Origin: an uncultured Oscillibacter sp.
GTDB taxonomy: Bacteria; Bacillota; Clostridia; Oscillospirales; Oscillospiraceae
Length of the DNA stretch: 32,000 nucleotides
Assembly (NCBI GenBank): GCA_947244595.1
Contig: CAMXKT010000002.1
Span: 47,520-79,519, forward strand
Direction: 5' to 3'
The position numbers and the translations under genes were made by a program. Positions within the stretch are counted from its first letter, which is position 1, and each line of letters begins with the position of its first letter. This document shows positions 13,630 through 31,117 of this stretch, piece after piece. The notes under the pieces were generated by a model that searched no databases, had not been told where the DNA came from, and saw only the letters and a list, made by a program, of their open reading frames with translations.

Positions 13630-13703
13630 GCAGGGTTAGTACATCGGTAGTACAACGGCTTCCCAAGCCGTGGAGGCGGGTTCGATTCCCGTACCCTGCT
13701 CCA
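13630..13703 (+). tRNA. tRNA-Gly(CCC): tRNA-Gly, anticodon CCC, CCA encoded
   Basis: Hand-folded cloverleaf: acceptor GCAGGGT/ACCCTGC, D-stem GTAC/GTAC, anticodon stem ACGGC/GCCGT with loop TTCCCAA, variable GGAG, T-arm GCGGG TTCGATT CCCGT, discriminator T, then CCA. Total length 74 nt. Confidence 0.9.
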
Positions 13704-13710
13704 CGAGGGG

Positions 13711-13740
13711 CCCTGGAACCACAATGGTTCCAGGGTTTTT
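13711..13740 (+). terminator. terminator after tRNA-Gly
   Basis: CCCTGGAACC (13711-13720) pairs with GGTTCCAGGG (13726-13735), followed by TTTTT. Confidence 0.75.
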
Positions 13741-13777
13741 CCGTTCCCCGTGGAGGCAGGTTTCCCTTTGGTTTCCC

Positions 13778-16137: not shown

Positions 16138-16985
16138 AAATGCATCCTTTCTTGATTTTAAAAAAGGACGCAGCTCACCCATTGGCACAGTCCAGCCATT
16201 TCCGGCTTTTATCCGCCGGACCTCCCAGGCCGAAACCGCGCCAATGAGCTTAGACCCATTGAAAACAGCAGGTTTTATTGGCTGGGAGCAGCCGATCTAG
16301 CTGGTCCGTCTCCGTTGTATATCGTGGTCAGTATGATCGCCGTGAAGCCGCTCAAAAGCGACGGGGAAGGAAATTCCCGCGGCAGACGCGAAGCCCTGGG
16401 CAAGGCGCGGGAGAGTTCCCGCCTGCGTCCGTGGTCCCGTCCCCGGCAGAAGGACGGCGAAAGTGTGAAGGAAGTCCCGCCCTGCCGGAGGCGGAACTGG
16501 CCGGCAGTCTGGGCCGGCCCGGAAATAGAATAACTTTTCATCTGGTTTTGCATAGCGAATCCTCCTTTTTTTTACCCTTGGCAGGCGGGGGTGACTGGTC
16601 CCCTCCCGTTGCGCAGAGCGCCGGGTCCTGTTACTTTTGGACGCAAAAAAGCCCGCGCCTTCCCAGTGGGAAAACTCGGACACTTTGAAACACGGATACT
16701 GTGCTTGCTTTCGCAAAGCTCTGTTACTGTATGGCTACAGCATAGCAGACGCCCCGCAGAAAGTCAAGACCCGTTCCGGCTCCTTCATCATCATTCAAAA
16801 ATGGGCAGACTGCCCCCCTAAACACCACTCGGCGGCTTTCGCTCACCGAACGTACAACCCTTGGGATCGACCGGCCCGCCGGCGTCTCCACCACAACGTA
16901 TGCAATGCTGCTCCCTGGCAGCCCCCAGGCCAGCGGCCCGGCTCCGAGTTTCACGGAGGGCGCACAAACAATCAATAATGGTTTC

Positions 16986-17014
16986 TTTATATCACGGTTT
17001 ACAGATTTTGTCAA
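16986..17014 (-). promoter_or_regulatory. near-consensus promoter firing leftward into the ORF-poor region and the recombinase-xis-int operon
   Basis: Minus strand reads TTGACA (17014-17009), 17-nt spacer, TATAAA (16991-16986), preceded by TGa (extended -10). Confidence 0.6.
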
Positions 17015-17085
17015 TGCTTGCCTTGATATCTTCTATTCTTGGCCTATCCAGAACAGCGGGCATACTACGCCCTTTGTCACGCCGT

Positions 17086-17126
17086 TCCTCCCTAACATAG
17101 TCCGCCCTAACTTACTCCGCCCTAAT
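17086..17126. repeat. three tandem 15-bp-spaced direct repeats, TCC(T/G)CCCTAA(C/T)
   Basis: TCCTCCCTAAC at 17086-17096, TCCGCCCTAAC at 17101-17111, TCCGCCCTAAT at 17116-17126. They lie 70-110 bp upstream of the leftward promoter. Confidence 0.8.
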
Positions 17127-17144
17127 GATAGATCAATTCTATCA
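17126..17144. repeat. 19-bp palindrome TGATAGA-TCAAT-TCTATCA (operator-like)
   Basis: Perfect 7-bp arms at 17126-17132 and 17138-17144. Confidence 0.75.
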
Positions 17145-17154
17145 ACTCGAAAAC

Positions 17155-17245
17155 GGCCTGTCTAGGTGGAAACCTTCCACCCTGTAGGCTTGCGCCTCTG
17201 AGGTACAGGGTCATTATACTTTCCGGCCTAGAGGCTGTCTAGGTG
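17155..17245. repeat. direct repeat CTGTCTAGGTG (two copies) flanking two hairpins
   Basis: The copies are at 17158-17168 and 17235-17245, both preceded by CGGCCT. Between them are hairpins GGTGGAA-ACC-TTCCACC (17165-17181) and CCCTGTA...TACAGGG (17180-17210). Confidence 0.7.
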
Positions 17246-17264
17246 AAGTTTTGTCAACCAGCAG

Positions 17265-17301
17265 AAAAAGGGATGTGTCCAAGTTGGACACATCCCTTTT
17301 T
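17265..17301. repeat. palindrome family copy 1, a perfect 37-nt palindrome that also has the form of a bidirectional terminator
   Basis: AAAAAGGGATGTGTCCAA-G-TTGGACACATCCCTTTTT, centre G at 17283. It lies 14 nt downstream of the NYN gene stop. Confidence 0.9.
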
Positions 17302-17314
17302 CATTAGAATGCGA

Positions 17315-18013
17315 TCACACTTTGAACTGATCGTTCCCTTCCATATTCTTTTCTCGTTTGTATGGATTTCCACAGCTTCTTTTTCCATCAATATGTTCAA
17401 ACAGATCTCGGTCCTTGCTGATTTCCATTTCCATGGGGTCCAGCACAAAGTCAAGCCCTTCACGTCTTGCCAGTTTTGCGGCCGGAACAAAATCACTGTC
17501 TCCGGCAATCAAAACGATTTGCTCAACTTGATGCTTATATGCCAAAGAAGCTATATCCATACCAATTTTCATATCAACGCCCTTTTGCCGAATAGTTAGT
17601 TCAAAATCCTTTTCGGTAAGAGCGTCAGGCGATAGGGTCCCATTGCAAAGTTTTTTCACAGAACTATACGAAAGTGTATATACGGAGTTCGTATCATCCA
17701 AAAAGCCAAGCCTTAGTGCGACTTTCCTTTTTTCCTTCAGGCAATTTAAAAAATCACACATCCATGAATAGTCTGGTGTAGCGCCTAGATTAACCGTACG
17801 TTTCAACAGAGGATGATACATTTGTTTATTGACTGGAGCACAGTCATAATAAAAAATGCGATATAGCTCATGGTGGTATACGTGCTCTTTCAAATGTCTC
17901 CGGACATATGTAATTAAGCCGCTTGCTGTTTCCTGTGGGGAGTGCTGTCCCCACAGTTTTTTCGCCCGTTTTCGATAAAAACCACCATCAACCAAAATCG
18001 CTGTTTTCGACAT
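17315..18013 (-). CDS. NYN-domain (LabA/DUF88, PIN-like) putative ribonuclease
   Basis: 232 aa. The pattern AILVDGGFY ... KGVDMKIGMDIASLAYKHQVEQIVLIAGDSDFVPAAKLARREG matches the NYN-domain acidic-residue pattern. The gene is AT-rich: about 37-38% GC in two hand-counted 60-nt samples. Confidence 0.8.
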   Translation of the reverse strand: MSKTAILVDGGFYRKRAKKLWGQHSPQETASGLITYVRRHLKEHVYHHELYRIFYYDCAPVNKQMYHPLLKRTVNLGATPDYSWMCDFLNCLKEKRKVALRLGFLDDTNSVYTLSYSSVKKLCNGTLSPDALTEKDFELTIRQKGVDMKIGMDIASLAYKHQVEQIVLIAGDSDFVPAAKLARREGLDFVLDPMEMEISKDRDLFEHIDGKRSCGNPYKREKNMEGNDQFKV

Positions 18014-18039
18014 ATTTCTCCCTCCGCTACATATATCTA

Positions 18040-18092
18040 AAGCCCTTAGAACGGGCTCTCCCCTTATCGTGGGGGGTCTGCTCTAAGGGCTT
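18040..18092 (-). promoter_or_regulatory. long hairpin in the 5' leader of the NYN gene
   Basis: A perfect 11-bp stem AAGCCCTTAGA (18040-18050) / TCTAAGGGCTT (18082-18092) encloses an inner C-run/G-run hairpin. It ends 27 nt upstream of the start codon. Confidence 0.5.
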
Positions 18093-18138
18093 GATAGCAC
18101 AACGGGGAGGTGGCGGGGCCACTTTCGTTGTACTGCTT

Positions 18139-18167
18139 ATATTATGCTCTTGTTGCGTGTAAGTCAA
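18139..18167 (-). promoter_or_regulatory. candidate promoter of the NYN gene
   Basis: Minus strand reads TTGACT (18167-18162), 17-nt spacer, TAATAT (18144-18139). Confidence 0.5.
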
Positions 18168-18222
18168 CCTCAAATCATACTTTTTGACGTTTTCAACAAA
18201 TTATATTTGACTTTTCGTCAAA

Positions 18223-18669
18223 TTATTTAATAGAATCGCCGGTAGTTTTTTCTTCACTTTCTTTCTTCAGGTTTTCCGTTTCCTTCGCTCCGGCGGGCCG
18301 GGCGTCCCCCAGCTCCTCCATGGGGATGCTTCCCTTTACCGGCTTGGCCTCCTGCGCGGCCTTGAACTCAATGAAGGCCATGACCTCCTGCTGGGCCTCT
18401 TTGGAGAGCTTGTCGTAGCGAAGCACCAAGTAGGGGTGATCTGGGAATTTAGGAGCATCAGGAGAGCTCTCCCCTAGGAGTTCGCTGGTGGTCACATCAA
18501 GGTACTGCGCCAAAAGCTGGACCTTCTCAACAGAGGGGATACTTCCTTGTGTTGTTATTTTATTTATGAAATTTGCACCCGCTCCGCTTTCACGACAAGC
18601 TACCGTGGGTTTAATTCCACGCAAGGCACAATATTTCTTGACATTTTGCACAAGAATCTCCTTGTCCAA
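18223..18669 (-). CDS. cI-like phage repressor (XRE-family HTH)
   Basis: 148 aa with a TTG start 9 nt after AAGGAG. The N-terminal HTH_3 is VKKYCALRGIKPTVACRESGAGANFINKITTQGSIPSVEKVQLLAQYLDV. It is divergent from a cro-like gene. The inverted repeat TTTGAC-N5-GTCAAA (18206-18222) sits right after the stop. Confidence 0.8.
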   Translation of the reverse strand: MDKEILVQNVKKYCALRGIKPTVACRESGAGANFINKITTQGSIPSVEKVQLLAQYLDVTTSELLGESSPDAPKFPDHPYLVLRYDKLSKEAQQEVMAFIEFKAAQEAKPVKGSIPMEELGDARPAGAKETENLKKESEEKTTGDSIK

Positions 18670-18710
18670 GAGGCATTACTCCTTAAAAAGAATCGGCGCT
18701 TTATACAAAT

Positions 18711-18750
18711 AATCTCTATTTAGGCATTTCTATATTGACAATCTCTAATT
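18711..18750. repeat. two operator-like direct repeats AATCTCTA(T/A)TT in the switch region
   Basis: Copies at 18711-18721 and 18740-18750. The second overlaps the -35/spacer of the rightward promoter. Confidence 0.45.
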
Positions 18751-18763
18751 GGTGATTTATGCT
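18735..18763 (+). promoter_or_regulatory. candidate early rightward promoter (PR-like)
   Basis: TTGACA (18735-18740), 17-nt spacer, TATGCT (18758-18763). It lies 66 nt from the repressor start and about 480 nt upstream of the cro-like ATG. Confidence 0.5.
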
Positions 18764-19241
18764 TTACGTGTAGGGCAACCCAAGGCCCGAGAAAACAGAC
18801 AGCGACGCAGACATCCGCCGAATTTACGGAGTACAAACCGACCATTGCTGGCCGGCAGGGCGATAAGCTCACCCCATTCTCATGATAATCGGAACGCTTC
18901 GCGAGGGAAGAAGTAAAGCCAAGAGACTTGCACAAGGAATCCTCTGCCTTATCGAAGACGCGAGAAACACTCATGCCGCCCATGGTCTTATCAAATCCGT
19001 TGATTCCAGGCATCCAAATTTGTTGCTCCGCCGAAGCGGGGAACGGTCATTTTTGCCGCCCTCTCATGGTCGCCCATGAGTTCAGACTGTGCCTTCATCC
19101 CAGGGGGATGCTCCGTGTCCAGTCGTTACACCTTCCCATAAAGGGCTTGGCTCGGCGTAATCTGCTTTGCTGTCTGTTTTTCATTCTACCATTTACGCAA
19201 GGCGTAAGCAAGCCCCAATTTAATCGAAAGGAGATGAAACC

Positions 19242-19445
19242 ATGGAAATTCGCAAGTTCCGAGAGGCGGCGGGCCTGACCATGACGGAGCTGGCGGGCAA
19301 GTTAGGCGTATCGGTTCCTACCGTGTCCCGCTGGGAAAGCGGCGAGGACAGCCCTGCGTCTCCCAGGCTCCCGCTTCTGGCGGACGCGCTGGGCTGCTCC
19401 ATTGACCAGCTGTACGGGCGCGGTTCTCCCCCCGCGGCGAGATGA
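19242..19445 (+). CDS. Cro/XRE-type HTH regulator
   Basis: 67 aa. The HTH is LTMTELAGKLGVSVPTVSRWESGEDSP. The SD AAAGGAG lies upstream. Confidence 0.8.
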   Translation: MEIRKFREAAGLTMTELAGKLGVSVPTVSRWESGEDSPASPRLPLLADALGCSIDQLYGRGSPPAAR

Positions 19446-19479
19446 GAGTCCCCATTACGCAAGGAAGGAGAAACCCATC

Positions 19480-19659
19480 ATGTGGACATTATTCTTTTTC
19501 GTCACTACGCTCATCTTCGCCTGGAAATGGTCTGTTGCCCGGATCGCCGAGATGGCCCTGCTCCAGTACATACAGGACAAGGACTTTCCGTGGCCCTCGG
19601 CGGAAGAGTTTGACGAATACTGCGACTGCGCCTGGAGGGCCCTGCTGCGCCTTCCGTAA
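19480..19659 (+). CDS. small hypothetical membrane protein (59 aa)
   Basis: ATG 19480 follows GGAGAA, within ORF 19402-19659. The N-terminal hydrophobic helix is MWTLFFFVTTLIFAWKW. Confidence 0.5.
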   Translation: MWTLFFFVTTLIFAWKWSVARIAEMALLQYIQDKDFPWPSAEEFDEYCDCAWRALLRLP

Positions 19660-19704
19660 CCCGTCCCCAGCCCCCGCAGAACAAAACCGAAAGGAGGTGT
19701 CCGA

Positions 19705-19917
19705 ATGAAACCGCGCCCTTCGTCCTATGAAGCCCTTCCCTGGGTCCTGACCCCCGAGGAGGTGGCACCGCTGCTGAACGTCGGCATTTGTACCGTCTAT
19801 GAGCTGCTTCGGAGCAAGCAGCTCAAGCACACCCGGATCGGCGTGCAGTACCGGATTCTCAAACAGGACGTGCTGGCCTTCATGGACCAGGGCTCCCAGG
19901 CGGCAGAGGCCGTCTAA
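19705..19917 (+). CDS. excisionase-family HTH_17 DNA-binding protein
   Basis: 70 aa. The motif is LTPEEVAPLLNVGICTVYELLRSKQLKHTRIGVQYRILKQDV. The SD AAAGGAGG lies upstream. Confidence 0.75.
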   Translation: MKPRPSSYEALPWVLTPEEVAPLLNVGICTVYELLRSKQLKHTRIGVQYRILKQDVLAFMDQGSQAAEAV

Positions 19918-19949
19918 GCCGACCATATCACAAACAGGAGGAAAACACC

Positions 19950-20412
19950 ATGTCGGAACTGTCCCAAAACATCTACCGGACCGGGCGGATTTGTACCGGT
20001 CTCACCCAGGAGGCGGCGGCCGAGCAGATCGGCGTCGCGGCTGAAACGCTCCGGGCCTACGAGTCCGGGCGGCGGATTCCCCCCCAGTGACGTTGTGGAG
20101 CGGATGGTGGTCTGCTACCACGCCCCCGCCCTCGCTTACCGTCATCTTCATGAAACCAGCGGCCTGATCTCCTATGTGGTCCCGGAGCTGGAAGCCCGCA
20201 GCGTGCTGGAGTCGGCGGTCCGGTTCTACTTGCTACTGACCCGCTTCGCCAAGAGCCAGGCCGTGGACCGTCTGCTGGAGATCGCCGAGAGCGGTATCGG
20301 CCAGCGGGAACAGGCGGAGTTCAACCAAATCACGGCGGAGCTCCGGGAGCTGGCCCGCCCCTGCCTGGAGCTGGATATCTTCTGGAGAGACGCCGGAAAG
20401 GAGCTGTTATGA
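19950..20412 (+). pseudogene. XRE-type HTH gene split by a frameshift at a C7 homopolymer (real mutation, slippage site or sequencing error)
   Basis: ATG 19950 follows AGGAGG and encodes MSELSQNIYRTGRICTGLTQEAAAEQIGVAAETLRAYESGRRIPPQ*, with stop at 20088-20090. Removing one C from the run at 20079-20085 gives ...RRIPPSDVVERMVVCYHAP..., continuous with ORF 20095-20412. That ORF has no credible own RBS. Confidence 0.6.
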
Positions 20413-20588
20413 AACGCTATGTGATTCAGTCTCGCACCCACGACTGGGACCCCTGGGAGGTCTGTCCCGGCAAAGAGTTCTTTTCGCCGGAAGAGGCCAG
20501 GAAGGCTTTCGATGCTCTGCCCTTTAAGACGCACTACCGGATCGCCGAGGCGTACGTCCAGGTTCGCTATAAGGCCGTCAAGGAGTAG
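20409..20588 (+). CDS. hypothetical protein (59 aa), below the ORF-track cutoff
   Basis: It has an ATGA overlap with the upstream stop. My translation is MKRYVIQSRTHDWDPWEVCPGKEFFSPEEARKAFDALPFKTHYRIAEAYVQVRYKAVKE. Confidence 0.5.
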   Translation: MKRYVIQSRTHDWDPWEVCPGKEFFSPEEARKAFDALPFKTHYRIAEAYVQVRYKAVKE

Positions 20589-20597
20589 GAGGCTGTC

Positions 20598-20861
20598 ATG
20601 AACGAACAAGAAAAGGCGATGCTTCTAACCGCCGGACACAGCCGCTGCCTGCTTCCTCTGGAAAATCTTCTTGAACAAGCTATCCAGAAGCAGGCGTTTC
20701 GGTCGGCGGAGTGCTGGCGGTATGAATACAACGGGGCGCTGAAGATGCTGGAGGCCCTGCGTCTGATTTCGGCTGAGGAGTACGATGCCCGTTCAGAAGA
20801 GATGCTGTCTCGGCTTCTGCGAGCCCAGCACCCGGAAGACTATGAGGATGAGACAGCATGA
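20598..20861 (+). CDS. hypothetical phage protein
   Basis: 87-aa ORF after the SD GGAGTAGGAGG, with a helical composition. Confidence 0.55.
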   Translation: MNEQEKAMLLTAGHSRCLLPLENLLEQAIQKQAFRSAECWRYEYNGALKMLEALRLISAEEYDARSEEMLSRLLRAQHPEDYEDETA

Positions 20862-21016
20862 ACCGGCTCATAAGCGCCATACCCGTGAGGGGCGGCTGGT
20901 ATGTGCAGGTCGTACTCCCCAGCGGGAGGCTTCGGTGGATTCCCTGCGTGGGGACCTTCCGGGAGGCCATAGACCAGGCGCTCCAATGGGAGCTGGAGGA
21001 AGGAGAAGACGAATGA
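20858..21016 (+). CDS. hypothetical protein (52 aa), below the ORF-track cutoff
   Basis: It has an ATGA overlap with the upstream stop. My translation is MNRLISAIPVRGGWYVQVVLPSGRLRWIPCVGTFREAIDQALQWELEEGEDE. Confidence 0.45.
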   Translation: MNRLISAIPVRGGWYVQVVLPSGRLRWIPCVGTFREAIDQALQWELEEGEDE

Positions 21017-21162
21017 ACCGCGCAAAAAAAGACCGCCCGAAAGTTGCAGCCTTCGAGCAGTCTCGTCCAAGGGTTTGCCCTGGAATCAACGGTAAAGTTA
21101 TTATATCAGAATTCCGGCAAAATGCAAGCCCCAATCTGGACGGGGGAGGAGGTGCCTCCCCC

Positions 21163-21252
21163 ATGTCCGGATGGGTACTCGCATTGACTATGATCGGGAG
21201 CGGCTGGCTGACCAGCCAGCTGTTCCGCCTGATTGACTGGATTGAGCGCTGA
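21163..21252 (+). CDS. possible 29-aa hydrophobic peptide
   Basis: ATG 21163 lies 10 nt after GGAGGAGG and encodes MSGWVLALTMIGSGWLTSQLFRLIDWIER. The longer in-frame option from ATG 21013 has atypically AT-rich third positions. Confidence 0.3.
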   Translation: MSGWVLALTMIGSGWLTSQLFRLIDWIER

Positions 21253-21289
21253 ACCCTCTCTGAATCTCAACAACGAAAGGAACGCCGTA

Positions 21290-22378
21290 ATGAGCATTTT
21301 GGAACATCACTTTCCCCCGCTGATCGCAGAAAAATACGGCGTGAACGCGGCAATTTTCCTGCGGGATATCTACCATTGGTGCAGCACCAACCGCGACAAT
21401 GAACAAAACCTTCACGAGGGCCGGTGGTGGACCTATCAGACCATCAAAGGGCTGTGCCGCCGCCACCCCTACTGGACGAAAAACCAGGTTGAGCATATCA
21501 TCAAGACCTGCCAGGAAAAGGGGGCTCTGCTGTCCGGGCATTTCAACGAGGACCCCCTTGACCGGACGCGGTGGTACACCCTCACCGACGAGGCGTGGGA
21601 ACTGTTCGAGGGGCCGCTTCCCATTTCGGAGATTTCCGAAATGCATTTCGGAAAAGATACCCCTGCAAGCCGGAAAAATCAGAAATGTAATAATGATAAA
21701 CATAAGACAGAAAATATAAAACATATATATGCGCAGCCCGCCGCGCAGGGGTGTGTTCAGGACGTGGAAACGGCGCTGTCCTCCGTGGAAGTACATGACG
21801 ATAACCGCTCCGCCGTCGCTGAGGTCGCTTACGCGCTTGAGCAAAGCGGCTACCTGTGCCAGTGCAATGTCCTGGTGCCCTCAAGGGGGACCGGCGACCA
21901 GTACCGGGGCCGGATTAACATTGTCGCCACCAGGGATGGAAAGACAGTCGCACTGTCTCTCGACCGAAAGACTATCCGGGAGAAGAGCGTGTTCATGCTA
22001 AGGGAATTTCCTTGCGACTGCCGGATCGTTCTGCTGAGAAGCGGAGAGATTCCGCTTCCCCCGGCTGGGATCGACGCGATACTCTCTCTTCAGGTTACGA
22101 ACGGCGAGGATGACTTCCTGCGTTTCTGGGCCGCTTACCCCCGGAAGGTGGACAAGCAGAAGGCATTGAATGCCTGGAAGAAACTCTCTCCGGACGGAGA
22201 GCTGTGCCAGGTGATTGCGGCGGCCCTGGAGGAGCAGAAGCGTTCCCCCCAGTGGCTCAAGGACGGCGGAGCCTATATTCCCTACCCTTCCAGCTGGCTC
22301 AATGGCCGCCGGTGGGAGGATGAGAGCGGGCCAGCGCACACCGCCTCTGAAACTGAGGAAGGAGTGACGTACATATGA
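21290..22378 (+). CDS. phage replication initiator / replisome organizer-like protein
   Basis: ORF 21233-22378, preferred start ATG 21290. It has an N-terminal winged-helix-like region and a low-complexity AT-rich linker. The C-terminal motif FLRFWAAYPRKVDKQKALNAWKKL...WLNGRRWED recurs in phage/plasmid DnaD-like organizers (from memory, not searched). Confidence 0.6.
   Translation: MSILEHHFPPLIAEKYGVNAAIFLRDIYHWCSTNRDNEQNLHEGRWWTYQTIKGLCRRHPYWTKNQVEHIIKTCQEKGALLSGHFNEDPLDRTRWYTLTDEAWELFEGPLPISEISEMHFGKDTPASRKNQKCNNDKHKTENIKHIYAQPAAQGCVQDVETALSSVEVHDDNRSAVAEVAYALEQSGYLCQCNVLVPSRGTGDQYRGRINIVATRDGKTVALSLDRKTIREKSVFMLREFPCDCRIVLLRSGEIPLPPAGIDAILSLQVTNGEDDFLRFWAAYPRKVDKQKALNAWKKLSPDGELCQVIAAALEEQKRSPQWLKDGGAYIPYPSSWLNGRRWEDESGPAHTASETEEGVTYI
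21622..21654. repeat. three copies of CATTTCGGA (two direct, one inverted), including a 22-bp perfect palindrome; ori-like
   Basis: CATTTCGGA at 21622-21630 and 21644-21652, with the inverted copy at 21635-21643. The palindrome TTTCCGAAATGCATTTCGGAAA spans 21633-21654 and is followed by a very AT-rich stretch to about 21735. Confidence 0.75.
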
Positions 22379-23721
22379 GCGTGCTTGTGTCCGAGCTGGC
22401 CATGGAGGCCCAGATCAACGTCCTGGGCTCCATGCTGATCGACTCCGAAGTCGTCGGTCCCCTGCTTCACCGGCTCACGGCGGAGGACTTCATCGAGGGC
22501 CGGTATCGGAACATCTTCCTGGCCGTCAAGAGGCTCCAAAGCCAGGGGAAGGAGCCGGACCCCCTGCTGGTGAATGACGCGCTGGGCGGGAATTACCGTG
22601 AAATCCTGGCGGGTCTCATGGAGTGCACCCCTACCTCCGCCAACGCGATGGAGTACGCCGCCGTCCTCCACCGGGCCGCCCTGCAATACCACTTGTCGGA
22701 GCTGGGGGAGCAACTGGCAGCGGCGGCCGCCTCCAGCTTGGATGAGGCCCGGACAGTGGCGGACAAGATCACCTCTCTGGCCTGTGAGAAACCCGGCGTG
22801 CGAATCACGGATCTCCGCCAATGCTACGAGGAGTTCCTGGACCGCCACGCCGAGGGCAAGAAGCCCGCCTATTTCACCTGGGGCATCTCCGCCTTGGATG
22901 AGCGTATCTACGTGGAGCCGGGAGACTTCACCGTCCTGGGCGGCTATCCCAGCGCGGGCAAGACGGCCCTGGCGCTGCAAATGTCCTTCCACATCGCGGA
23001 GCAGAAGCGGGTGGGCTATTTCTACTACGAGAACAACGACAAGAAGCTCTTTGACCGGCTGGTTGCTCTCAAGGCCAAGGTGTCCTTCGGGAAGATCAAG
23101 CGCTTCGACCTCCAGGAGGAGGACTTCGAGCAGATCGTCGCCGTCCAGAACGCGCTGACGGCCCCAGCCCTGGAGTTCGTGGACGCCTCCGGCATGACGG
23201 CGGCGGACGTGCGGGCTATGGCCTTGAGCCGCCGCTATGAGCTGGTGGTGGTAGACTATCTCCAGAAAATTCCCAGCAGCCGGGGACGGCGGGGCCTCAG
23301 CGACTTTGAGCGGGTCAGCGAGGTCTCCGGGGACCTCCAGAACCTGGGCCGTCAGACCGGGACAGCGGTGCTGGCCTTGAGCCAGCTCAGCCGCCCGAAG
23401 GCGGGGGGCGTTCAGGAGCCCGGCATGCACGCCTTCCGCCAGTCCGGGCAGATTGAGCAGGACGCGGATGTGGCGCTGCTGCTGTACAAGGAGGCCGGGA
23501 AGGACCAGAAAACCGCCCGGGTGCTGAAAATCGGCAAGAACAAGGAAGGCGAGGCGAATCTCGCCATGCGGATGTATTTTGACGGCGACACCCAGAGCTT
23601 CAGCCGGGTATTCCCGGCGCCGGAGAAACAGGAGAAGCCGCGCCGGAAGGCCCAGGTCAGTTTCTGGGAGGGCTGGAAGGAGCTCCCGGACGACGGGGAC
23701 AACCCCTTTCCGGAAGAGTAA
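22375..23721 (+). CDS. dnaB: DnaB-family replicative DNA helicase (phage-encoded)
   Basis: 448 aa. The N-terminal DnaB domain is EAQINVLGSMLIDSEVV, Walker A is GGYPSAGKTALALQM, and the later motif is FRQSGQIEQDADVALLLY. It has an ATGA overlap with the upstream gene. Confidence 0.9.
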   Translation: MSVLVSELAMEAQINVLGSMLIDSEVVGPLLHRLTAEDFIEGRYRNIFLAVKRLQSQGKEPDPLLVNDALGGNYREILAGLMECTPTSANAMEYAAVLHRAALQYHLSELGEQLAAAAASSLDEARTVADKITSLACEKPGVRITDLRQCYEEFLDRHAEGKKPAYFTWGISALDERIYVEPGDFTVLGGYPSAGKTALALQMSFHIAEQKRVGYFYYENNDKKLFDRLVALKAKVSFGKIKRFDLQEEDFEQIVAVQNALTAPALEFVDASGMTAADVRAMALSRRYELVVVDYLQKIPSSRGRRGLSDFERVSEVSGDLQNLGRQTGTAVLALSQLSRPKAGGVQEPGMHAFRQSGQIEQDADVALLLYKEAGKDQKTARVLKIGKNKEGEANLAMRMYFDGDTQSFSRVFPAPEKQEKPRRKAQVSFWEGWKELPDDGDNPFPEE

Positions 23722-23754
23722 AACGCCGCCTCCCGGCGGCTGAAAGGATAGCTT

Positions 23755-24513
23755 ATGAAAACCATCGCGATCTTGAACCTGAAAGGCGGGACGGCGAAGA
23801 CCGTCACGGCGGCCACCATGGCCCGGTGCCTTTCTGCGGAATACAGCGAGTCAGTTGTGCTGATCGACGCCGACCAGCAAGGGAATCTCTCTCAGTACTT
23901 CGGCGTCACCGACACCAGCCAATGCGGCAATACCTGGACCATTCTGACGGACGGCGGCGGGTACTGGCCGGACTTCGTGACGCCGATTTCTCCCACGCTG
24001 GATCTCATTCCCTCGGGCATGGAGCTGGCCAGGGCGGACCTCCCTAACAGCGGCGCCAGGGTGACGCAGATCGAGGAGCTGCGGACCGTTCTGGCGGAGG
24101 ACGGGGTGCGGTACCTGATCATCGACCTGCCGCCGTCCCTGGGGTTTGTTGTTCAAGCGTCGCTGCTGGCGGCGGATGAGGTCATCATTCCCATCCGGCT
24201 GGACACGTTCAGCACCGCCGGCATGGCGGAGCTGGCGCGGCAAGTGGACGATATGCGGAGCATCAACCCCCGTCTCCGAGTGGCGGGTATTCTGGGGACT
24301 CAGTTTCAGCGGACCGCTTATGAGCGGGAGGTCCACCGCCTGTTGGCGCTAGAGTCCGACCTGCCGGTGTTTCAGACCTTGATCCGCATGAGCCCGCCGG
24401 TGCCCAGGAGCTTCGACGCGCACGAGAGCATCCTGACATTCTCTCCCCGCTGCGGGGCGTCGATTGACTACCGGGCCTTCGTGCGAGAATATCTGGAGGT
24501 TCATCATGGGTGA
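23755..24513 (+). CDS. parA: ParA/Soj-family partition ATPase
   Basis: 252 aa. It has the deviant Walker A NLKGGTAKT, plus LIDADQQGN and IIDLPPS motifs. Confidence 0.9.
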   Translation: MKTIAILNLKGGTAKTVTAATMARCLSAEYSESVVLIDADQQGNLSQYFGVTDTSQCGNTWTILTDGGGYWPDFVTPISPTLDLIPSGMELARADLPNSGARVTQIEELRTVLAEDGVRYLIIDLPPSLGFVVQASLLAADEVIIPIRLDTFSTAGMAELARQVDDMRSINPRLRVAGILGTQFQRTAYEREVHRLLALESDLPVFQTLIRMSPPVPRSFDAHESILTFSPRCGASIDYRAFVREYLEVHHG

Positions 24514-26395
24514 TTTCCGTTTGGCGGAGGTCTTGCGGGGCCAGCTCCAGAACGCCGGCAAAAATGTGTCCAACTTGGACACATCCGACAGCCCGCAGCA
24601 GATCGAGTACATCGACATCGGCTTGCTGGACGGAGACCCCCGGAACCGGCGGGATCTGCGGGGGCTGGAGGAGCTGGCGGCGAACATTGAGCTTTTGGGC
24701 CTCCGTCAGCCCCTCCGGGTACGGGAGAACCCCGAATCTCCCGGCCGGTTTATCATCGTGTCCGGCCACCGGCGCCGGGCGGCGCTTCAAAGATTGGTAG
24801 ACGATGGACGGGTGGACTTCGCACGGGTCCCCTGCATCCGGGACGTCTCCGCCCAATCCAGCGCCCTGCAGGAACTGCGGCTGATCTTCGACAATCTGGA
24901 TACCCAGCCCTATTCCTCCGCGGAGAAGGCCAAAATTGCCGCCCGGGTGGAGGAGCTGCTGTACGTGCTGAAAGAGGAGGGCATGGAGTTCCCGGGCCGG
25001 ATGCGGGACCAGGTGGCGGCGGCGTGCAGGATTTCCGCCCCGAAGCTGGCACGGCTGAAGGTCATCCGGGAGAAATTGGTCCCACAATACATGGGCCTGT
25101 TTGAGAAGGGCACGCTGCCGGAGCAGACAGCCTACGCCCTGGCACGTCTGCCGGAGGTTTTCCAGAAGCGCCTGGCCAACGCCCTGTCGGAGGTCCCCAG
25201 CGGCAGCATTGCGGAGAAGGTGCTGAAAAAGTACAACGAGGGCTGGCGGTGGGAGCCGGCACTCCAGTGCCCGGACGGGAAGCCCTGCAAGCGGGGAGAC
25301 ACATTCCTCCGGCGGGACTGCGAGACACACTCCTGGGAATCCTTCTGTGGCGGGAATACCTGCTGTCTGAAATGTGAGAAGTCGAAGGCCGGCTATTCTC
25401 CCTGTGAGCGCATGTGCTCCAAGGCCAAGGCCCAGCGGAAGGTCAAAAAGGACGAGGAGGCGGAGGCCGCCCACAAGCGAAAGCAAAAGAATGGCCGGAC
25501 ATACCAGAAGGAGACGCAGATCTACGCCAAGCGGCTGCTCCCGGCCATTGACGCCGCCGGACTGCCGGAAGAAGAGAGTATCCACTGGCATTGGGACAAC
25601 TGTACGGTAGCCGATATTCGCCGGTGGGCCGCCGGAGAGTTTGACGATCCGGCTGGATGGGACTGGGCACGCCTGGAGCCGGGCAAATGCGGCGAAGAGG
25701 TGAAGGTGGCCATTCTGCTGGGCTGTACGACGGATTTCCTCATGGGCTTGGCGGACGATTTCCGCCCCCCGGCGGCCCCGGAGCCCCCCGCCCAGGAGGA
25801 GCCCGCCCAGAATGTGTCCAACTTGGACACATTTCCCGAGGAGGAACAGGGGGAGGGACTGGAGGACGAAGCGGAGGAGCCCGAGGAGGAAGCCGAAGAG
25901 CCCCCTGTCCGCCGGGTCCGGTGGGAGAGCCGGGGCCGCACGCCGCCGGAGGGCAAGCCGGTCCTCACCTATGCACTTAACAACGACGGTCCGGTATACC
26001 GTGCGGTGATGTGGAAGGACGGTCAATTCAAATTTCCCAACGGGAAAAAGTTTGCGACGGGCCTCCAGTACATCCAATGGCTGGAGATCCCGCTCCCCAG
26101 CTCCGGGGAGGAGTTCCAGCTGGAGCGGGCGGAAGGACAACTGGTACTCTCCGGCTGGATGCCCGGCGGGACGTTCCCCCGGCAGCCTTGTGAGGCGGTG
26201 GCGGATTTTCGGTCCGCCGGTGAGGCCGGCAGACCCGGCGCCCGCATCCGGCGTGCCTGCTGGTTTGACGGTGAGGCTTTCCTGTTCAAACGGCACGGCG
26301 CCAAGATCGATGCGGAGTGCGTCCGCTGGATGGCTCTGCCGCCGGTGGAAGACGATGTGTCCAAGTTGGACACAAATGGAGGAGAGCGCGTATGA
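24506..26395 (+). CDS. parB: ParB/Srx N-terminal-domain protein with a long atypical C-terminal extension (629 aa)
   Basis: ATG 24506 follows GGAGG and overlaps the parA stop. The ParB-type motif is LRQPLRVRENPESPGRFIIVSGHRRRAALQ. The rest comprises a central Cys-rich segment, an acidic/Pro linker, and about 180 aa of unknown C-terminal domain. Confidence 0.8.
   Translation: MGDFRLAEVLRGQLQNAGKNVSNLDTSDSPQQIEYIDIGLLDGDPRNRRDLRGLEELAANIELLGLRQPLRVRENPESPGRFIIVSGHRRRAALQRLVDDGRVDFARVPCIRDVSAQSSALQELRLIFDNLDTQPYSSAEKAKIAARVEELLYVLKEEGMEFPGRMRDQVAAACRISAPKLARLKVIREKLVPQYMGLFEKGTLPEQTAYALARLPEVFQKRLANALSEVPSGSIAEKVLKKYNEGWRWEPALQCPDGKPCKRGDTFLRRDCETHSWESFCGGNTCCLKCEKSKAGYSPCERMCSKAKAQRKVKKDEEAEAAHKRKQKNGRTYQKETQIYAKRLLPAIDAAGLPEEESIHWHWDNCTVADIRRWAAGEFDDPAGWDWARLEPGKCGEEVKVAILLGCTTDFLMGLADDFRPPAAPEPPAQEEPAQNVSNLDTFPEEEQGEGLEDEAEEPEEEAEEPPVRRVRWESRGRTPPEGKPVLTYALNNDGPVYRAVMWKDGQFKFPNGKKFATGLQYIQWLEIPLPSSGEEFQLERAEGQLVLSGWMPGGTFPRQPCEAVADFRSAGEAGRPGARIRRACWFDGEAFLFKRHGAKIDAECVRWMALPPVEDDVSKLDTNGGERV
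24564..24584. repeat. palindrome family copy 2 (21 nt)
   Basis: ATGTGTCCAA-C-TTGGACACAT, centre C at 24574. It lies inside parB-like codons 20-27. Confidence 0.9.
25811..25833. repeat. palindrome family copy 3 (23 nt)
   Basis: AATGTGTCCAA-C-TTGGACACATT, centre C at 25822. It lies inside the acidic/Pro linker of the parB-like gene. Confidence 0.9.
26356..26374. repeat. palindrome family copy 4 (19 nt)
   Basis: TGTGTCCAA-G-TTGGACACA, centre G at 26365. It ends 6 codons before the parB-like stop codon. Confidence 0.9.
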
Positions 26396-26574
26396 GGATA
26401 CTGAACACCGGAGACCCCTGCCCCTTCTGCGGCCAGCCCATTCGGACGACAGACCCCGCCGCGCTGCGGCTGCTGGCGGCCGTGGCGGACATTGCCGGGT
26501 TCCCGGACCCGAAAAAGGAGGCCCCTGACGATGGGAACGAGATTCACGGCCCCAGAGGGGGCGCTTCGGAGTAA
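26392..26574 (+). CDS. small hypothetical protein with a CPFCG motif (60 aa)
   Basis: It has an ATGA overlap with the parB-like stop and begins MRILNTGDPCPFCGQPIRTTDP. It overlaps the next candidate CDS by 44 nt, so one of the two starts may be wrong. Confidence 0.4.
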   Translation: MRILNTGDPCPFCGQPIRTTDPAALRLLAAVADIAGFPDPKKEAPDDGNEIHGPRGGASE

Positions 26575-27181
26575 CCTGGGCCTGCTGGCCGGGACGGTTA
26601 TCCGGGAACTGCGGATACACCCCTTTCTGGATAAAGAACTGGAAGGCGGTTCTTGGAATTTCCGCCCGGAGTGGCTGGAGTTCACCATTCTGTCTGTTGT
26701 AAGCGGCGGCTACCGCTGCCGGTACTCCGGGGAGGAGGAGCCCTTCGCCTGGTCCTCCTGGAGGAGTCAGCCGAATCACGGCTACATGGAGGACGACAGC
26801 ACGCCGGTCAGGTATTACGTCAAGGAGGCGCCTCTGCCCCCTCCCTACGAGGGCAAGCCGGGGTTCTCTCCCTACGAGCTGCGGTGTATGGAAATCGACG
26901 AGGCGGCGCTGCTGATCCGGGACCCGGACGCTTTCGCGGAAGCGGCGGCCGCCCCGGAGACGGGCAAGACCGACCCGTACGCTTTCCATGAAAGGCCCTC
27001 CAGAAAATTCACGGAGCGGGGCGGGTGCCCGTTTTATCAGGGACTCCTGAACTGGGGGTGTGGCTCCAGCGTCTTGTGCGAGGCGGTCCGGCCCCATCTC
27101 CATGGTCATGTGGGGATCAAGTTCTGTGAGGAGGGCCGGAAAGCCTACTGCCCGATCTGGCGGGCAAAGGGCGGGCAGTGA
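26531..27181 (+). CDS. hypothetical phage protein with a Cys/His-rich C-terminus
   Basis: ORF 26492-27181. The preferred start is ATG 26531, 8 nt after AGGAGG. I recognise no family. Confidence 0.55.
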   Translation: MGTRFTAPEGALRSNLGLLAGTVIRELRIHPFLDKELEGGSWNFRPEWLEFTILSVVSGGYRCRYSGEEEPFAWSSWRSQPNHGYMEDDSTPVRYYVKEAPLPPPYEGKPGFSPYELRCMEIDEAALLIRDPDAFAEAAAAPETGKTDPYAFHERPSRKFTERGGCPFYQGLLNWGCGSSVLCEAVRPHLHGHVGIKFCEEGRKAYCPIWRAKGGQ

Positions 27182-27205
27182 AATGTGTCCAAGTTGGACA
27201 CATTT
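27181..27205. repeat. palindrome family copy 5 (25 nt), terminator-like
   Basis: AAATGTGTCCAA-G-TTGGACACATTT, centre G at 27193. It starts at the last base of the upstream stop codon and has a T-run on its 3' side. Confidence 0.9.
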
Positions 27206-29201: not shown

Positions 29202-29494
29202 AGGGTAACAGACGGCCGCCGCCCCGCCGCCCGGCGAGTTACGCGGACCTGCTGAAGCTCAAGGCGGAGGCGAAGAACCAGGGGATTATGGAGGCGTTTA
29301 TCATTTTCTTCAGCGCCCTGCGGGACAAAGAGGGCTTCGGCCCCACCCGGCTGCGCCGGGTCCTGGACGCGATGAACGAGTACGCCGGCAGTATCCGAAA
29401 CGGGTATGTCACCATCCAGGACCTCCAGACCACGCTGAGGGAGGAGGCGGGGATCGAGCTGACTTTTAACAGTCTGGGAGGTGGGGACAAATGA
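29198..29494 (+). CDS. hypothetical phage protein (98 aa)
   Basis: It has ATGA overlaps at both ends. It is the in-frame part of ORF 29060-29494 starting at MKGNRRPPPRR. Confidence 0.5.
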   Translation: MKGNRRPPPRRPASYADLLKLKAEAKNQGIMEAFIIFFSALRDKEGFGPTRLRRVLDAMNEYAGSIRNGYVTIQDLQTTLREEAGIELTFNSLGGGDK

Positions 29495-30216
29495 GTGATC
29501 CATCGACCTGGTATTGCGTAAGACAGCGGGCGGGACCTTTCGTCAAAGCCTTTTCTACCGACAACTACCGCCTCGTCAAACGTCTGCGGGCCCGCAGTCC
29601 CAGTCATCCCGCCCTGAGCGGTACGCCGCTGGATCGGCTGGAACTGCGGCTGGCGCTCTTTGGATACGACGGCATTTTTTACACGCTCACGTTCTCGGAC
29701 GAAACCCTGCCCCGGGACTTGGATGGGGTGATGAGGGTATGGAACGCTTTCCTCATGCGGGTGAAACGCTGGCGGAAGGGCGTGCCGCTGGACTTTTACG
29801 TTTACCGCATCGAGGGCCTCCACGGCGATTCCCGCTATCATATCCATGCGTTCCTGCGGGACAAAGACCTTCCTCCAGCGGTGGTCCAATATCTCTGGAC
29901 GTGGGGCTTTGTGGATGATGAGCCGTTTGATGAAAAGCGGGTATTGGCAGAAAAGGGCTACCGATGCCTTGCCCGCTACTTCACCAAGGAGCGGCCCGAG
30001 GTTGGCCGCCACGCCTGGGGGGATGCCCGTAAGCTGAAATCTCTGCTCCCTCCTCCAGCAGTCCACGCCTCCAAGACGGGGCGGATATCCATCCCGCGGG
30101 ACGCAGTGCTGCTTCCCGTCAGGGACGATCTTAAAAAAACGGGTTGGGGTTACTACCAGTACGCCCGCTATCTGCTCCCCCAAAAACGGCGCTTTATATT
30201 TAATCAAGAGGATTAG
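29491..30216 (+). CDS. HUH-endonuclease-like rolling-circle Rep-type protein
   Basis: 241 aa. It carries, in canonical order, motif I-like FYTLTF, motif II RYHIHAF (H-u-H) and motif III-like YRCLARYFTKE (catalytic Tyr candidates). Confidence 0.6.
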   Translation: MSDPSTWYCVRQRAGPFVKAFSTDNYRLVKRLRARSPSHPALSGTPLDRLELRLALFGYDGIFYTLTFSDETLPRDLDGVMRVWNAFLMRVKRWRKGVPLDFYVYRIEGLHGDSRYHIHAFLRDKDLPPAVVQYLWTWGFVDDEPFDEKRVLAEKGYRCLARYFTKERPEVGRHAWGDARKLKSLLPPPAVHASKTGRISIPRDAVLLPVRDDLKKTGWGYYQYARYLLPQKRRFIFNQED

Positions 30217-30545: not shown

Positions 30546-30920
30546 ATGGCAATGAAACCGCTCCGGCCCTGTCTCCATCCCGGGTGCGGCGTGCTGGTCT
30601 CCGGCGGCTACTGCGCCGCCCATCAGCCGCAGCCGAAGGACCGGCGCAGCGCGGAGGCCCAGGCGTGGCGCTGGATGTACGGGACGGACGTGTGGAAGCG
30701 CCTGCGTGAGGACCAGCTTTTGCGGGAACCCTTCTGCCGGGAGTGCGCCCGGCGGGGCGTGCGCCGGTACGCCACCGACGTGGACCACATCCGGGACCAC
30801 AAGGGGGACTGGGCCCTGTTCACGGACCCCGGGAACCTGGAGAGCCTTTGTCATTCCTGCCACAGCCGCAAAACGGCCCGGGATTTGTGGCAAAACCGAA
30901 GGGAAAAACGGCGCCGCTGA
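30546..30920 (+). CDS. phage HNH endonuclease
   Basis: 124 aa. The motifs CRECARRG...DVDHIRDHKGD...NLESLCHSCHSRKT fit an HNH endonuclease. The SD GGAGGTG lies upstream, and the gene sits just before the terminase. Confidence 0.85.
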   Translation: MAMKPLRPCLHPGCGVLVSGGYCAAHQPQPKDRRSAEAQAWRWMYGTDVWKRLREDQLLREPFCRECARRGVRRYATDVDHIRDHKGDWALFTDPGNLESLCHSCHSRKTARDLWQNRREKRRR

Positions 30921-31117
30921 GGGTAAACCCCAGCCCAGCTTTGGGCGCGTGGGCGTCCCGCGTGCCTGTGCGCCGGGATTCCCTGCACCCCTCCCCCCGG
31001 TCAAGAAAGTTTTGGCCGGGCGGCGCAATACCGCAAGCGGCCCTCCGCGTGGGATTTTTCCCCCACGGCGGAATCCGGGGACGACCAAAGCCGCCTGAGC
31101 GGCGGAAAGGACAGCGA

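Follow-up and report, generated by a model that had tools for sequence, protein, structure and literature searches.

Introduction

KorB of plasmid RK2 is a ParB-family protein that is encoded next to a ParA protein, IncC, and that acts at dispersed copies of an odd-length perfect palindrome with a central G/C, the OB operator (TTTAGCSGCTAAA). A parS site is located inside the spo0J gene of Bacillus subtilis, N15 has dispersed centromere repeats, and sopC of F is a tandem array. The stoperators of cluster A mycobacteriophages (L5 gp71) are dispersed copies of one short motif at gene boundaries that have been proposed to block transcription of the prophage; they are 13 bp long, asymmetric, and orientation dependent, and they share their sequence with the operator of the repressor itself. 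BisD of ICEclc is a ParB-like cytidine triphosphate (CTP) clamp with an extra C-terminal domain that binds bisS, spreads, and controls promoters; the bisS palindrome has an odd length of 23 bp and a central N, and two copies of it lie ~2 kb apart in coding genes (PMC12409273). A recent survey of the ParB-CTPase fold describes many uncharacterized prophage and plasmid variants of ParB, and our term search of it detected no reference to palindromic sites (PMC12704722). We here analyzed a 32,000-nucleotide (nt) stretch of DNA from an uncultured Oscillibacter sp. (assembly GCA_947244595.1, contig CAMXKT010000002.1, positions 47,520 to 79,519 of the forward strand), referred to below as the window, in which a prophage carries five copies of a perfect palindrome and a parA gene followed by a parB-like gene. 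On the basis of sequence comparison, we predict, with a probability of roughly 0.55, that the five palindromes are specific loading sites, similar to parS, OB, or bisS, for the ParB-family protein of the prophage itself.

The locus resembles the KorB system in that a ParB-family protein is encoded next to a ParA and an odd-length perfect palindrome with a central G/C is present in dispersed copies, and a KorB structure was among the Foldseek and profile matches of the ParB-like protein. An initial annotation of the window had drawn this analogy, which is apt, with BisD/bisS providing an even closer precedent. The palindrome is nevertheless unrelated in sequence to OB and has arms of 9 to 12 bp, the hosts are Firmicutes phages or Clostridial plasmids, the copies are placed not at promoters but inside parB or at the ends of genes, and the ParB-like protein has Cys-rich, coiled-coil, and beta-rich C-terminal domains for which no match was found in KorB. 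With BisD/bisS the locus shares an integrated mobile element, an extra C-terminal domain, and an odd-length palindrome inside genes, and the inner core of bisS, TCCCCnGGGGA, is also the core of the palindrome type of the Clostridium perfringens plasmid pCP13. BisD differs in having no ParA partner and in acting as an activator together with BisC, and no sequence relation extends beyond the ParB fold; in contrast to bisS, the palindromes described here number four to seven and are embedded in the gene of their putative reader. A partner similar to KorA or BisC was not identified here, and none was sought. An odd-length dyad with a central N in dispersed copies, as in OB and bisS, is found five times in the window, four times in Flavonifractor phage Cormatin, and seven times in pCP13.

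The locus shares with type Ia ParABS systems the parA-parB gene order and a palindrome within or close to the par operon; it differs from them in its noncanonical odd-length site, its location in an integrated element, and a short ParA without a helix-turn-helix. A tandem array on the Paeniclostridium sordellii plasmid pCS1-5, described below, resembles that of F sopC. The palindrome is unrelated to canonical parS, as originally stated: the motif is an odd-length 19- to 25-mer and does not match the 16-bp TGTTNCACGTGAAACA. Unlike stoperators, it is a perfect dyad and is absent from the cI-cro region. It shares with bidirectional terminators and repetitive extragenic palindromic (REP) units a GC-rich stem, flanking A/T runs (at site 1, in low-GC phages, and in plasmids), and a placement between genes, but it differs from them in the use of one stem sequence across distant hosts, in several copies that have no U-tract, and in its absence from host chromosomes.

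Results

Palindromes in the window

The 19-nt core of the palindrome, TGTGTCCAA-S-TTGGACACA, is present in five exact copies in the window, with matches to the pattern TGTGTCCAASTTGGACACA starting at positions 17274, 24565, 25813, 26356, and 27184. Shuffling of the window gave a chance expectation of 0.01 copies, with none of 100 shuffled sequences reaching five, and no additional core match was detected in the window when up to three mismatches were allowed. The five copies, and the judgment that a 19-mer of this kind exceeds chance in 32 kb, had been put forward in the initial annotation and were both reproduced. Its palindrome lengths also hold for sites 2 to 5 (21, 23, 19, and 25 nt, respectively), whereas the perfect palindrome at site 1 measures 39 nt, extending one G/C pair beyond the 37 nt noted originally. 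The half-site GTGTCCA occurs alone four times in the window outside the five palindromes, compared with ~2.8 expected, and is therefore not enriched, and the host portion of the window (1–13.7 kb) contains no copy of the palindrome.

Four of the copies lie in or just after the parB-like gene that directly follows parA, as had been described, three of them inside the gene and one after the next large open reading frame (ORF). The parA gene (23755–24513, plus strand) encodes a Walker-type ParA/MinD-family ATPase of 252 amino acids that has no N-terminal helix-turn-helix, and it is positioned immediately 5' of the parB-like gene (24506–26395, plus strand; 629 amino acids, ATG at 24506), with an overlap of 8 nt. 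Sites 2 to 4 are read within the parB-like gene in a single common frame, as VSNLDT, VSNLDT, and VSKLDT. Site 2 (24564–24584; no strand is assigned to this or to any of the other palindromes) spans 21 nt; it begins 52 nt past the parA stop codon and at nt +59 of the parB-like gene, where it covers codons ~20–26 (NVSNLDTS), and its position is kept among parB relatives at 36–70% identity. The 23 nt of site 3 (25811–25833) encode NVSNLDTF in a low-complexity linker of the ParB-like protein (amino acids ~436–443) that has a predicted local distance difference test score (pLDDT) of <50, and a copy is found at the equivalent place in four relatives (L092, L143, L232, and L244). Site 4 (26356–26374; 19 nt) lies 20 nt ahead of the parB stop codon and is followed by a Shine-Dalgarno sequence and the start of the next small ORF; the VSxLDT peptide at this C-terminal position is kept in the consensus of 54 homologues. 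Site 5 (27181–27205; 25 nt) is intergenic; its first base coincides with the final nucleotide of the ORF 26492–27181 stop codon, its core lies 3 nt past that codon, and an ATG at 27237 is located 32 nt downstream. A simple promoter scan revealed no promoter consensus adjoining sites 2 to 5.

Site 1 (17264–17302) is a 39-nt perfect palindrome, GAAAAAGGGA-TGTGTCCAAGTTGGACACA-TCCCTTTTTC; it lies at the 3' end of a cI-NYN operon, 13 nt beyond the stop codon of the NYN gene, which is encoded on the minus strand. The same context, with a palindrome ~0.9 kb beyond a CI-like repressor gene, was found again in 54 related loci. The RNA fold of site 1 has a free energy of −30 kcal/mol on either strand (z = −8 to −9), with A5/U5 arms, and the site doubles as a bidirectional terminator-like hairpin. 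At site 5, a local hairpin of −19 kcal/mol is followed by UUUU, a weak likeness to a terminator; sites 2 to 4 are without a U-tract. A terminator scan picked up none of the five sites (0/5), and an Rfam search of the window found only a tRNA and hence no known RNA family for the palindromes.

Linkage to parB in phages and plasmids

The palindrome, or a variant with one or two mismatches, was present at approximately nt +56 to +63 of parB in 13 of the 13 loci that were retrieved by ParB similarity alone, and relatives of 27–100% identity have a copy or symmetric variant either near nt +56 of parB or in the gap between parA and parB. Phages of 36–45% GC content whose ParB is 28–32% identical carry the same 25-mer, AAATGTGTCCAASTTGGACACATTT, in the parA-parB gap. 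The corresponding gap of Enterocloster phage Saumur, which has an unrelated myovirus backbone, contains the variant GTGTCCGATTCGGTCAC, and a second copy in a tail gene of this phage has the same pair of unequal half-sites. In pCP13 (25% GC), AGGTGTCCCCGGGGGACACCT is located between parA and parB, and all seven copies on the plasmid (7/7) are intergenic, whereas in pCS1-5 two copies bracket parAB and three more are arranged in a 174-bp tandem array. Apart from parA and parB, none of the annotated genes of the window prophage had a detectable homologue in the fetched low-GC phage, Saumur, and plasmid loci. The Clostridium estertheticum plasmid pCF004-C, with a ParB of 22% identity, has a different palindrome, TTCAACGGTG-GTTAA-CACCGTTGAA, at nt +41 of parB (L249 3057–3081). 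Given dyads at parB across the 13 loci, the low-GC phages, Saumur, pCP13, pCS1-5, and pCF004-C, a dyad at or in parB is thus a family trait whose sequence drifts with the protein. The association of the palindrome with ParB that was noted in the window thereby extends to a positional tie across a wide ParB clade that includes true plasmids.

The copies of GTGTCCCC-S-GGGGACAC in pCP13 (L136, L371) are at 1699, 3511, 18492, 37854, 45174, 45228, and 49934; they are flanked by A/T runs, several lie in the conjugation locus, and two are 54 bp apart. The putative parS proposed in papers on the pCP13 family is a different region of 117 bp. The array of pCS1-5 (L372 44566–45103; ~86965–87502 of the record) consists of 3.1 copies of a 174-bp repeat at 94% identity in a 900-bp intergenic region, with AAGATGTGTCCCCCGGGGGCACATCTT in each unit, and is a centromere-like arrangement on a toxin plasmid.

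Constraint on the DNA and distribution in genomes

We analyzed codon usage at the embedded motif in 41 distinct high-GC parB genes, taking the same amino acid in the same genes as background. The motif codons were GTG for Val in 41 of 41 cases (background, 48%), TCC for Ser in 31 of 32 (33%), TTG for Leu in 30 of 32 (10%), GAC for Asp in 36 of 36 (61%), and ACA for Thr in 31 of 41 (13%). In the peptide variants VSDSDT, VPESGT, and VPNLGT, both halves of the palindrome are altered together and the dyad is kept. Selection therefore acts on the DNA beyond coding needs; conservation of this kind in homologues had been suggested as a check at the outset, and the codons are fixed in a manner that keeps the palindrome.

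Dispersed copies within one genome have a common variant, with three copies of GTGTCCAATTCGGACAC in L002, two of GTGCCCGA.TCGGGCAC in L003, and three of GTGCCCAA.TTGGGCAC in L132. Such sharing covers asymmetric variants (L002 and Saumur) and implies either a sequence-specific trans-acting reader or homogenization among copies.

When one genome was scanned for each species (185,579 genomes, 596 Gb), 136 exact copies of the 19-mer were detected in 64 assemblies. All of these are from Clostridia; most are Oscillospiraceae, and a few are Lachnospiraceae, Ruminiclostridium, and C. viride. The maximum per genome was 10 copies, and copies on the same contig clustered within at most ~35 kb. In IMG/VR, the exact 19-mer was found in at least 120 stretches and the GTGCCC...GGGCAC variant also in at least 120. 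The palindrome belongs to mobile elements, not to the host. The initial annotation had raised the case of a REP-like motif spread over the host chromosome; the scan instead revealed few, clustered copies in 64 of 185,579 genomes. A REP or bacterial interspersed mosaic element (BIME) of the host was rejected in view of the maximum of 10 copies per genome in prophage-sized clusters, as opposed to a high chromosomal copy number.

It is scarcely credible that the palindrome is a generic host REP-like element or, alternatively, that VSxLDT is a protein-level repeat without meaning in the DNA. The latter notion draws on the single reading frame shared by the three copies inside parB and on two relatives (L004 and L021) that keep VSNLDT with a CTG Leu codon and a broken dyad. 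The former is opposed by the small number and constant clustering of the 136 copies in 596 Gb, and a peptide repeat was ruled out by the extreme codon choice, the many intergenic copies, and the retention of the dyad while the peptide changes.

In the literature searched, no paper contained the long forms of the palindrome or of its variants, and 8-mer terms gave irrelevant matches only. The half-site was also compared with promoter-like, DnaA-box, CRP-like, and sigma-54-like consensus sequences, each of which was rejected for a misfit in spacing or key bases.

ParA and ParB-like proteins

ParA matched the Pfam families AAA_31 (3e-30) and CbiA (2e-14), and it accompanies ParB in relatives. The ParB-like protein consists, in order, of a ParB N-terminal domain (CTPase type), a helix-turn-helix, a Cys-rich segment, a coiled coil, a disordered linker, and a beta-rich C-terminal domain. 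Its match to Pfam ParB_N (1.9e-4) was under the curated cut-off; it matched PHROG 27290 at 3e-124 and also the ParB-like PHROG 4715, and a profile of 54 homologues matched the N-terminal domains of Noc, ParB, and KorB in PDB at 2e-4. More than 2400 homologues were found in the database searched. An AlphaFold model built with an alignment had a mean pLDDT of 64 and a poorly resolved N-terminal domain; a single-sequence model with a pLDDT of 43 was not used. The top Foldseek matches of the former were Caulobacter crescentus ParB-parS (6t1f), Spo0J (1vz0 and 4umk), and KorB (8qa8), over ~200 to 220 columns, with a probability of 1.0 for 6t1f despite the low pLDDT of the modeled N-terminal domain. 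Profile and Foldseek matches thus uphold the original assignment of the protein as ParB-like, with a genuine ParB N-terminal and helix-turn-helix fold.

The GxRR "box II" motif (G87-H88-R89-R90, codons at 24764–24775, plus strand) is invariant in the alignment of 54 homologues and aligns to GERR of Noc, and GHRR is taken from this alignment as the arginine motif of the predicted ParB nucleotide-binding pocket. In box III (ENLQR in canonical ParB; amino acids ~127–133), Asn130 is invariant, and throughout the family D, A, S, or T stands in place of the Glu (FDN or YAN), which hints at altered nucleotide hydrolysis. The helix-turn-helix, RMRDQVAAACRISAPKLARLKVIREKL (amino acids 165–191; 24998–25078, plus strand), has a pLDDT of >80 from amino acid ~181 on; its putative recognition helix is SAPKLARLKVI, and xISAPKLARLKVIREKL is conserved in the family. 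Nine invariant cysteines between C255 and C304 (window 25268–25417), which are followed by a long coiled coil, suggest a metal-binding module. The C-terminal domain (window 25913–26335) is beta-rich and Trp-rich and ends in RWMALPP; neither it nor the Cys-rich and coiled-coil domains had a match in Pfam or PDB. We take the C-terminal domain to resemble phage domains of the DUF551 type.

Covariation of site and protein

The second residue of the putative recognition helix is A or E in phages with GTGTCC-type sites and K in those with GTGCCC-type sites, with exceptions. Helices associated with GTGTCC...GGACAC begin S-A-P-K or S-A/E-S-K, and those associated with GTGCCC...GGGCAC begin S-K-S-K or K-K-T-K; the pairing of an Ala-to-Lys change with a change from T:A to C:G is chemically sensible, and the covariation is suggestive. 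Covariation with the ParB-like protein, which had been anticipated, was therefore seen in part: the helix residue tracks the site class, but largely as one clade split with exceptions, and ParB is not singled out. Motif class was uninformative for identifying the reader by protein phylogeny, because linkage to the nearest site dominates.

Several observations, here and in the following two sections, count against ParB as the reader of the palindrome. In a tree computed without the helix-turn-helix, the association amounts largely to the one clade split, with exceptions in both directions, including K with TA in L140 and L144 and A with CG or CA in the L125 group. With regard to nearest-neighbor concordance of motif class, ParB performed no better than ParA or CI. 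The pCP13-family mini-replicon pKZ200 (rep-parA-parB-PCP03) is unstable (PMC4459074).

Relatives without ParB

Of the same tenor is the persistence of the palindrome in elements that have no ParB. The islands L238, L161, and L227 contain no parA or parB in the fetched stretches and have four or five perfect or near-perfect sites. In L030-type phages, ParA is accompanied by an adaptor that has DUF3102 in the place of the ParB N-terminal domain and helix-turn-helix; the embedded site is missing, yet three other sites are kept. Hidden ParB domains were sought in the ParB-less relatives and none was found, the ORFs beside their sites being without a PHROG match. A ParB-less island and a prophage with ParB were found together in one assembly (CAJTZK contigs 3 and 7).

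A small integrated island adjoins host groES/groEL in Oscillospiraceae and Oscillibacter (L238 1–8000, L138 1–3400, and L227 1–7100). Besides a CI-like repressor and a Cro-like protein, its fetched stretches encode two Rep proteins, one DnaD-like and one of the HUH type, and a tape-measure-like protein of 660 to 835 amino acids. These stretches contain no head genes, integrase matches were found in the related L161 and L182, and one palindrome is located at the outer end. The island looks like a satellite or a defective derivative of the phage family of the window.

The DUF3102 adaptor (L030 8751–9800; also L060 and L005) retains two parts of Cormatin ParB, its N-terminal peptide (MSRFDITQAFQQAV) and its W-rich C-terminal domain, the latter at 83% identity, and the junction of the domain swap is where the embedded palindrome would be. 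The adaptors are only 53% identical to one another, so the replacement is not recent. A second repeated palindrome that might serve the adaptor was sought in L030-type phages and was not found. An 18-bp palindrome, AGGTGGAC-NN-GTCCACCT, is present in the 3' part of parA in Cormatin- and DUF3102-type loci (L001 28670–28687, L030 8636–8653, and L060 1923–1940); it was rejected as a site for the adaptor, being coding (KVDESTW) and within chance expectation, and so is probably not a site.

The palindromes could also be operators for another phage DNA-binding protein, such as an immunity-type or early regulator or the nearby HUH Rep, in the manner of dispersed stoperator-like or insulator sites that would silence or partition prophage transcription units. 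The commonest contexts of the palindrome, ~0.9 kb from a CI-like gene (54 loci) and 43 or ~400 bp upstream of an HUH Rep gene (42 loci), are consistent with this notion, as is the retention of CI, Cro, DnaD-like Rep, and HUH Rep together with sites in the ParB-less relatives. CI phylogeny moreover fits the motif class in 19 of 20 loci, a concordance that physical linkage of CI to the adjacent site can explain. The cI-cro intergenic region of the window, however, contains no palindrome, only other repeats and one solitary half-site, which led us to reject a CI repressor operator, and no homologues of CI, Cro, or Rep were detected in the fetched low-GC phage, Saumur, and plasmid loci that have the motif by parAB. 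The presence of several HUH Rep nick sites in the same genome would be harmful. We regard such a reader as improbable.

Hairpin features and module junctions

Four further features weigh in the same direction and are shared with nucleic acid hairpins. The palindromy of the core extends by at least 3 bp into flanks of differing sequence at 39 of 196 sites (20%, compared with ~1.6% expected); the inner core varies symmetrically (AA..TT, GA..TC, and CC..GG), with the changes being mostly compensatory; the majority of copies coincide with a gene boundary or a switch of coding phase, in many cases directly 5' of a Shine-Dalgarno sequence; and flanking A and T runs typical of bidirectional terminators are present at site 1 and in the low-GC phage and plasmid copies. 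They would fit a hairpin at operon junctions, in RNA, in single-stranded DNA, or as an extruded cruciform, in place of a duplex site for ParB. It might be an intercistronic terminator or attenuator, a signal for RNA processing or stability, or a structure recognized by a factor that is not ParB, with parB being one of several junction positions, and the persistence of the element in ParB-less relatives would follow. Quasi-palindrome correction could alternatively produce the flank palindromy. Structure alone does not explain an identical 19- to 25-mer across hosts of 33–66% GC content with adjacent proteins down to 28% identity. Nor do the lack of a U-tract at sites 2 to 4, the A.C or C.A rather than G.U mismatches of imperfect copies on the parB sense strand, the homogenization of asymmetric variants within genomes, or the non-terminator-like arrangement of the 174-bp tandem triple of pCS1-5 and the pCP13 pair 54 bp apart fit a hairpin, which we consider rather unlikely as the function of the element. 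A hairpin-based element and one with another reader, taken together, are doubtful but possible.

The palindrome may in addition mark module boundaries. As a "linker" that provides microhomology for recombination and drives mosaicism, a role compatible with the other readings, it would account for the 28 of 248 ends of high-scoring segment pairs in BLAST comparisons of the window with relatives that fall within 40 bp of a site, compared with 6.5 expected. Many of these alignments start exactly at site 2 (window 24499–24564), and the ParB-to-DUF3102 swap starts at the position of the embedded site. The identities of ParA and ParB are uncoupled in mosaics (82% and 49%, respectively, in L140; 40% and 69% in L143), which suggests junctions at or near the palindrome. 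The distinct end-points, however, number only six compared with three expected, the 20 codons preceding site 2 are hypervariable and may alone explain the alignment starts there, and dyad symmetry and the plasmid arrays are left unexplained. We hold a linker to be very improbable as the function of the palindrome; recombination-linker behavior as a side effect is possible.

Prophage context

Positions 1–13.7 kb of the window are host chromosome, with genes for RecQ, an ATP-binding cassette (ABC) transporter (ABC-3 permease), and a single-stranded DNA-binding protein (SSB). The left end of the prophage (13630–14974) comprises tRNA-Gly(CCC) (13630–13703, plus strand), at which the prophage is integrated, and a tyrosine integrase gene (13778–14974, minus strand), followed by an HTH_17 excisionase, a second tyrosine recombinase, ~1 kb without convincing genes, and site 1. 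The lysogeny operon (17315–18669, minus strand) contains the CI-like HTH_3 repressor gene (18223–18669) and the NYN-domain gene (17315–18013) and ends at site 1. The rightward early operon encodes, in order, a Cro-like helix-turn-helix protein, a DnaD-like initiator, DnaB, ParA, the ParB-like protein, small ORFs, an HUH rolling-circle-type Rep, a Cys-rich small protein, and a second, nuclease-like protein with ParB_N. The nearest relatives are Oscillibacter metagenome-assembled genomes at ~84% nucleotide identity. The ParB of phage Cormatin is 50% identical to that of the window, and F. plautii YL31 harbors Cormatin as an integrated prophage, which has been induced (PMC10197239). Given the integrase and tRNA-Gly context together with Cormatin as an integrated prophage, the element in the window is therefore an integrating temperate phage and no obvious plasmid-prophage.

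The ~1 kb between the second tyrosine recombinase and site 1 (16190–17260) has no convincing ORFs and no Rfam match, is ~84% conserved in the Oscillibacter relative L214 at least to 17125, and contains strong minus-strand promoter-like matches at 17241–17213 (TAGACA-17-TATAAT) and 17164–17136. The NYN-domain gene (a predicted RNase), on the same strand as and downstream of the CI-like gene, lies in a region of ~43% GC compared with ~62% elsewhere; relatives have other genes at this position, and it is probably lysogeny-expressed cargo. Two differing replication initiators are encoded, a DnaD-like replisome organizer (21233–22378) and the HUH Rep (29491–30216; motifs FYTLTF, HIHAF, and YFTKE). 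The second ParB_N protein (30743–31729; 328 amino acids) is unrelated in architecture to the 629-amino acid ParB-like protein and matches PHROG 620 (ParB-like partition protein) and PHROG 15396 (ParB-like partition nuclease).

Discussion

Our analysis describes a new site in a known kind of system, in which the breadth of the palindrome among mobile elements of gut Clostridia and its persistence without ParB stand out. The interpretation offered in the initial annotation, binding of the palindromes by the adjacent ParB-like protein, gains from the specificity of the motif for mobile elements, its tie to parB, the constraint on the DNA, and the ParB fold of the protein, and it loses from the sites in ParB-less relatives, the hairpin features, and the integration of the element. 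Given that the prophage is integrated, a pure centromere role in partition is not obviously required, a further point against loading sites of the parS type. The ParB-less sites, flank palindromy, placement at junctions, integration, and unstable mini-replicon therefore make a hairpin function, a second reader, or the use in trans of the ParB of a co-resident phage possible.

If the palindromes are loading sites for ParB, a dimer of the protein would read two GTGTCCA half-sites with its helix-turn-helix, the central S lying on the dyad. The dimer would then close as a nucleotide-bound clamp and spread from the four-site cluster at 24.5–27.2 kb, and with ParA the clamp might position or partition excised, replicating phage genomes. 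Alternatively or additionally, ParB may act like KorB or BisD and modulate transcription across operon junctions. Site 1 presumably also terminates transcription in both directions where the cI operon ends. A regulatory role would better suit the prophage, because the element integrates and has its sites at gene boundaries.

A broader proposal, which we consider quite unlikely, is that the palindrome serves as a shared "address" for clamps of the ParB, KorB, and BisD type in integrating prophages and plasmids of gut Clostridia, with clamp loading gating read-through between phage modules and with ParB-less elements being sensed or controlled in trans by a helper ParB. The address would be written in-frame in the gene of the clamp itself and would also be present at operon junctions, its sequence there forming a terminator hairpin as well, and ParB-less relatives and the satellite-like islands (int-CI-Rep-HUH Rep by groES) would keep their sites for the ParB of a co-resident helper.

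Should the palindrome act as a hairpin, it would represent an unusual reuse of one conserved hairpin at module junctions across distant mobile elements. If binding by ParB is true, (A)TGTGTCC-N5-GGACACA(T) would be a new specificity for a very large uncharacterized clade of >2400 proteins encoded by phages of gut Oscillospiraceae and Lachnospiraceae and by C. perfringens and P. sordellii toxin plasmids, and the natural symmetric site variants together with the helix-turn-helix variants would provide a data set for ParB specificity and for orthogonal DNA-labeling tools. Such binding would also provide a handle on the maintenance of virulence plasmids of the pCP13 and pCS1 types, on why integrating prophages have ParAB, and on whether clamp regulation in the style of KorB and BisD occurs in Firmicutes phages.

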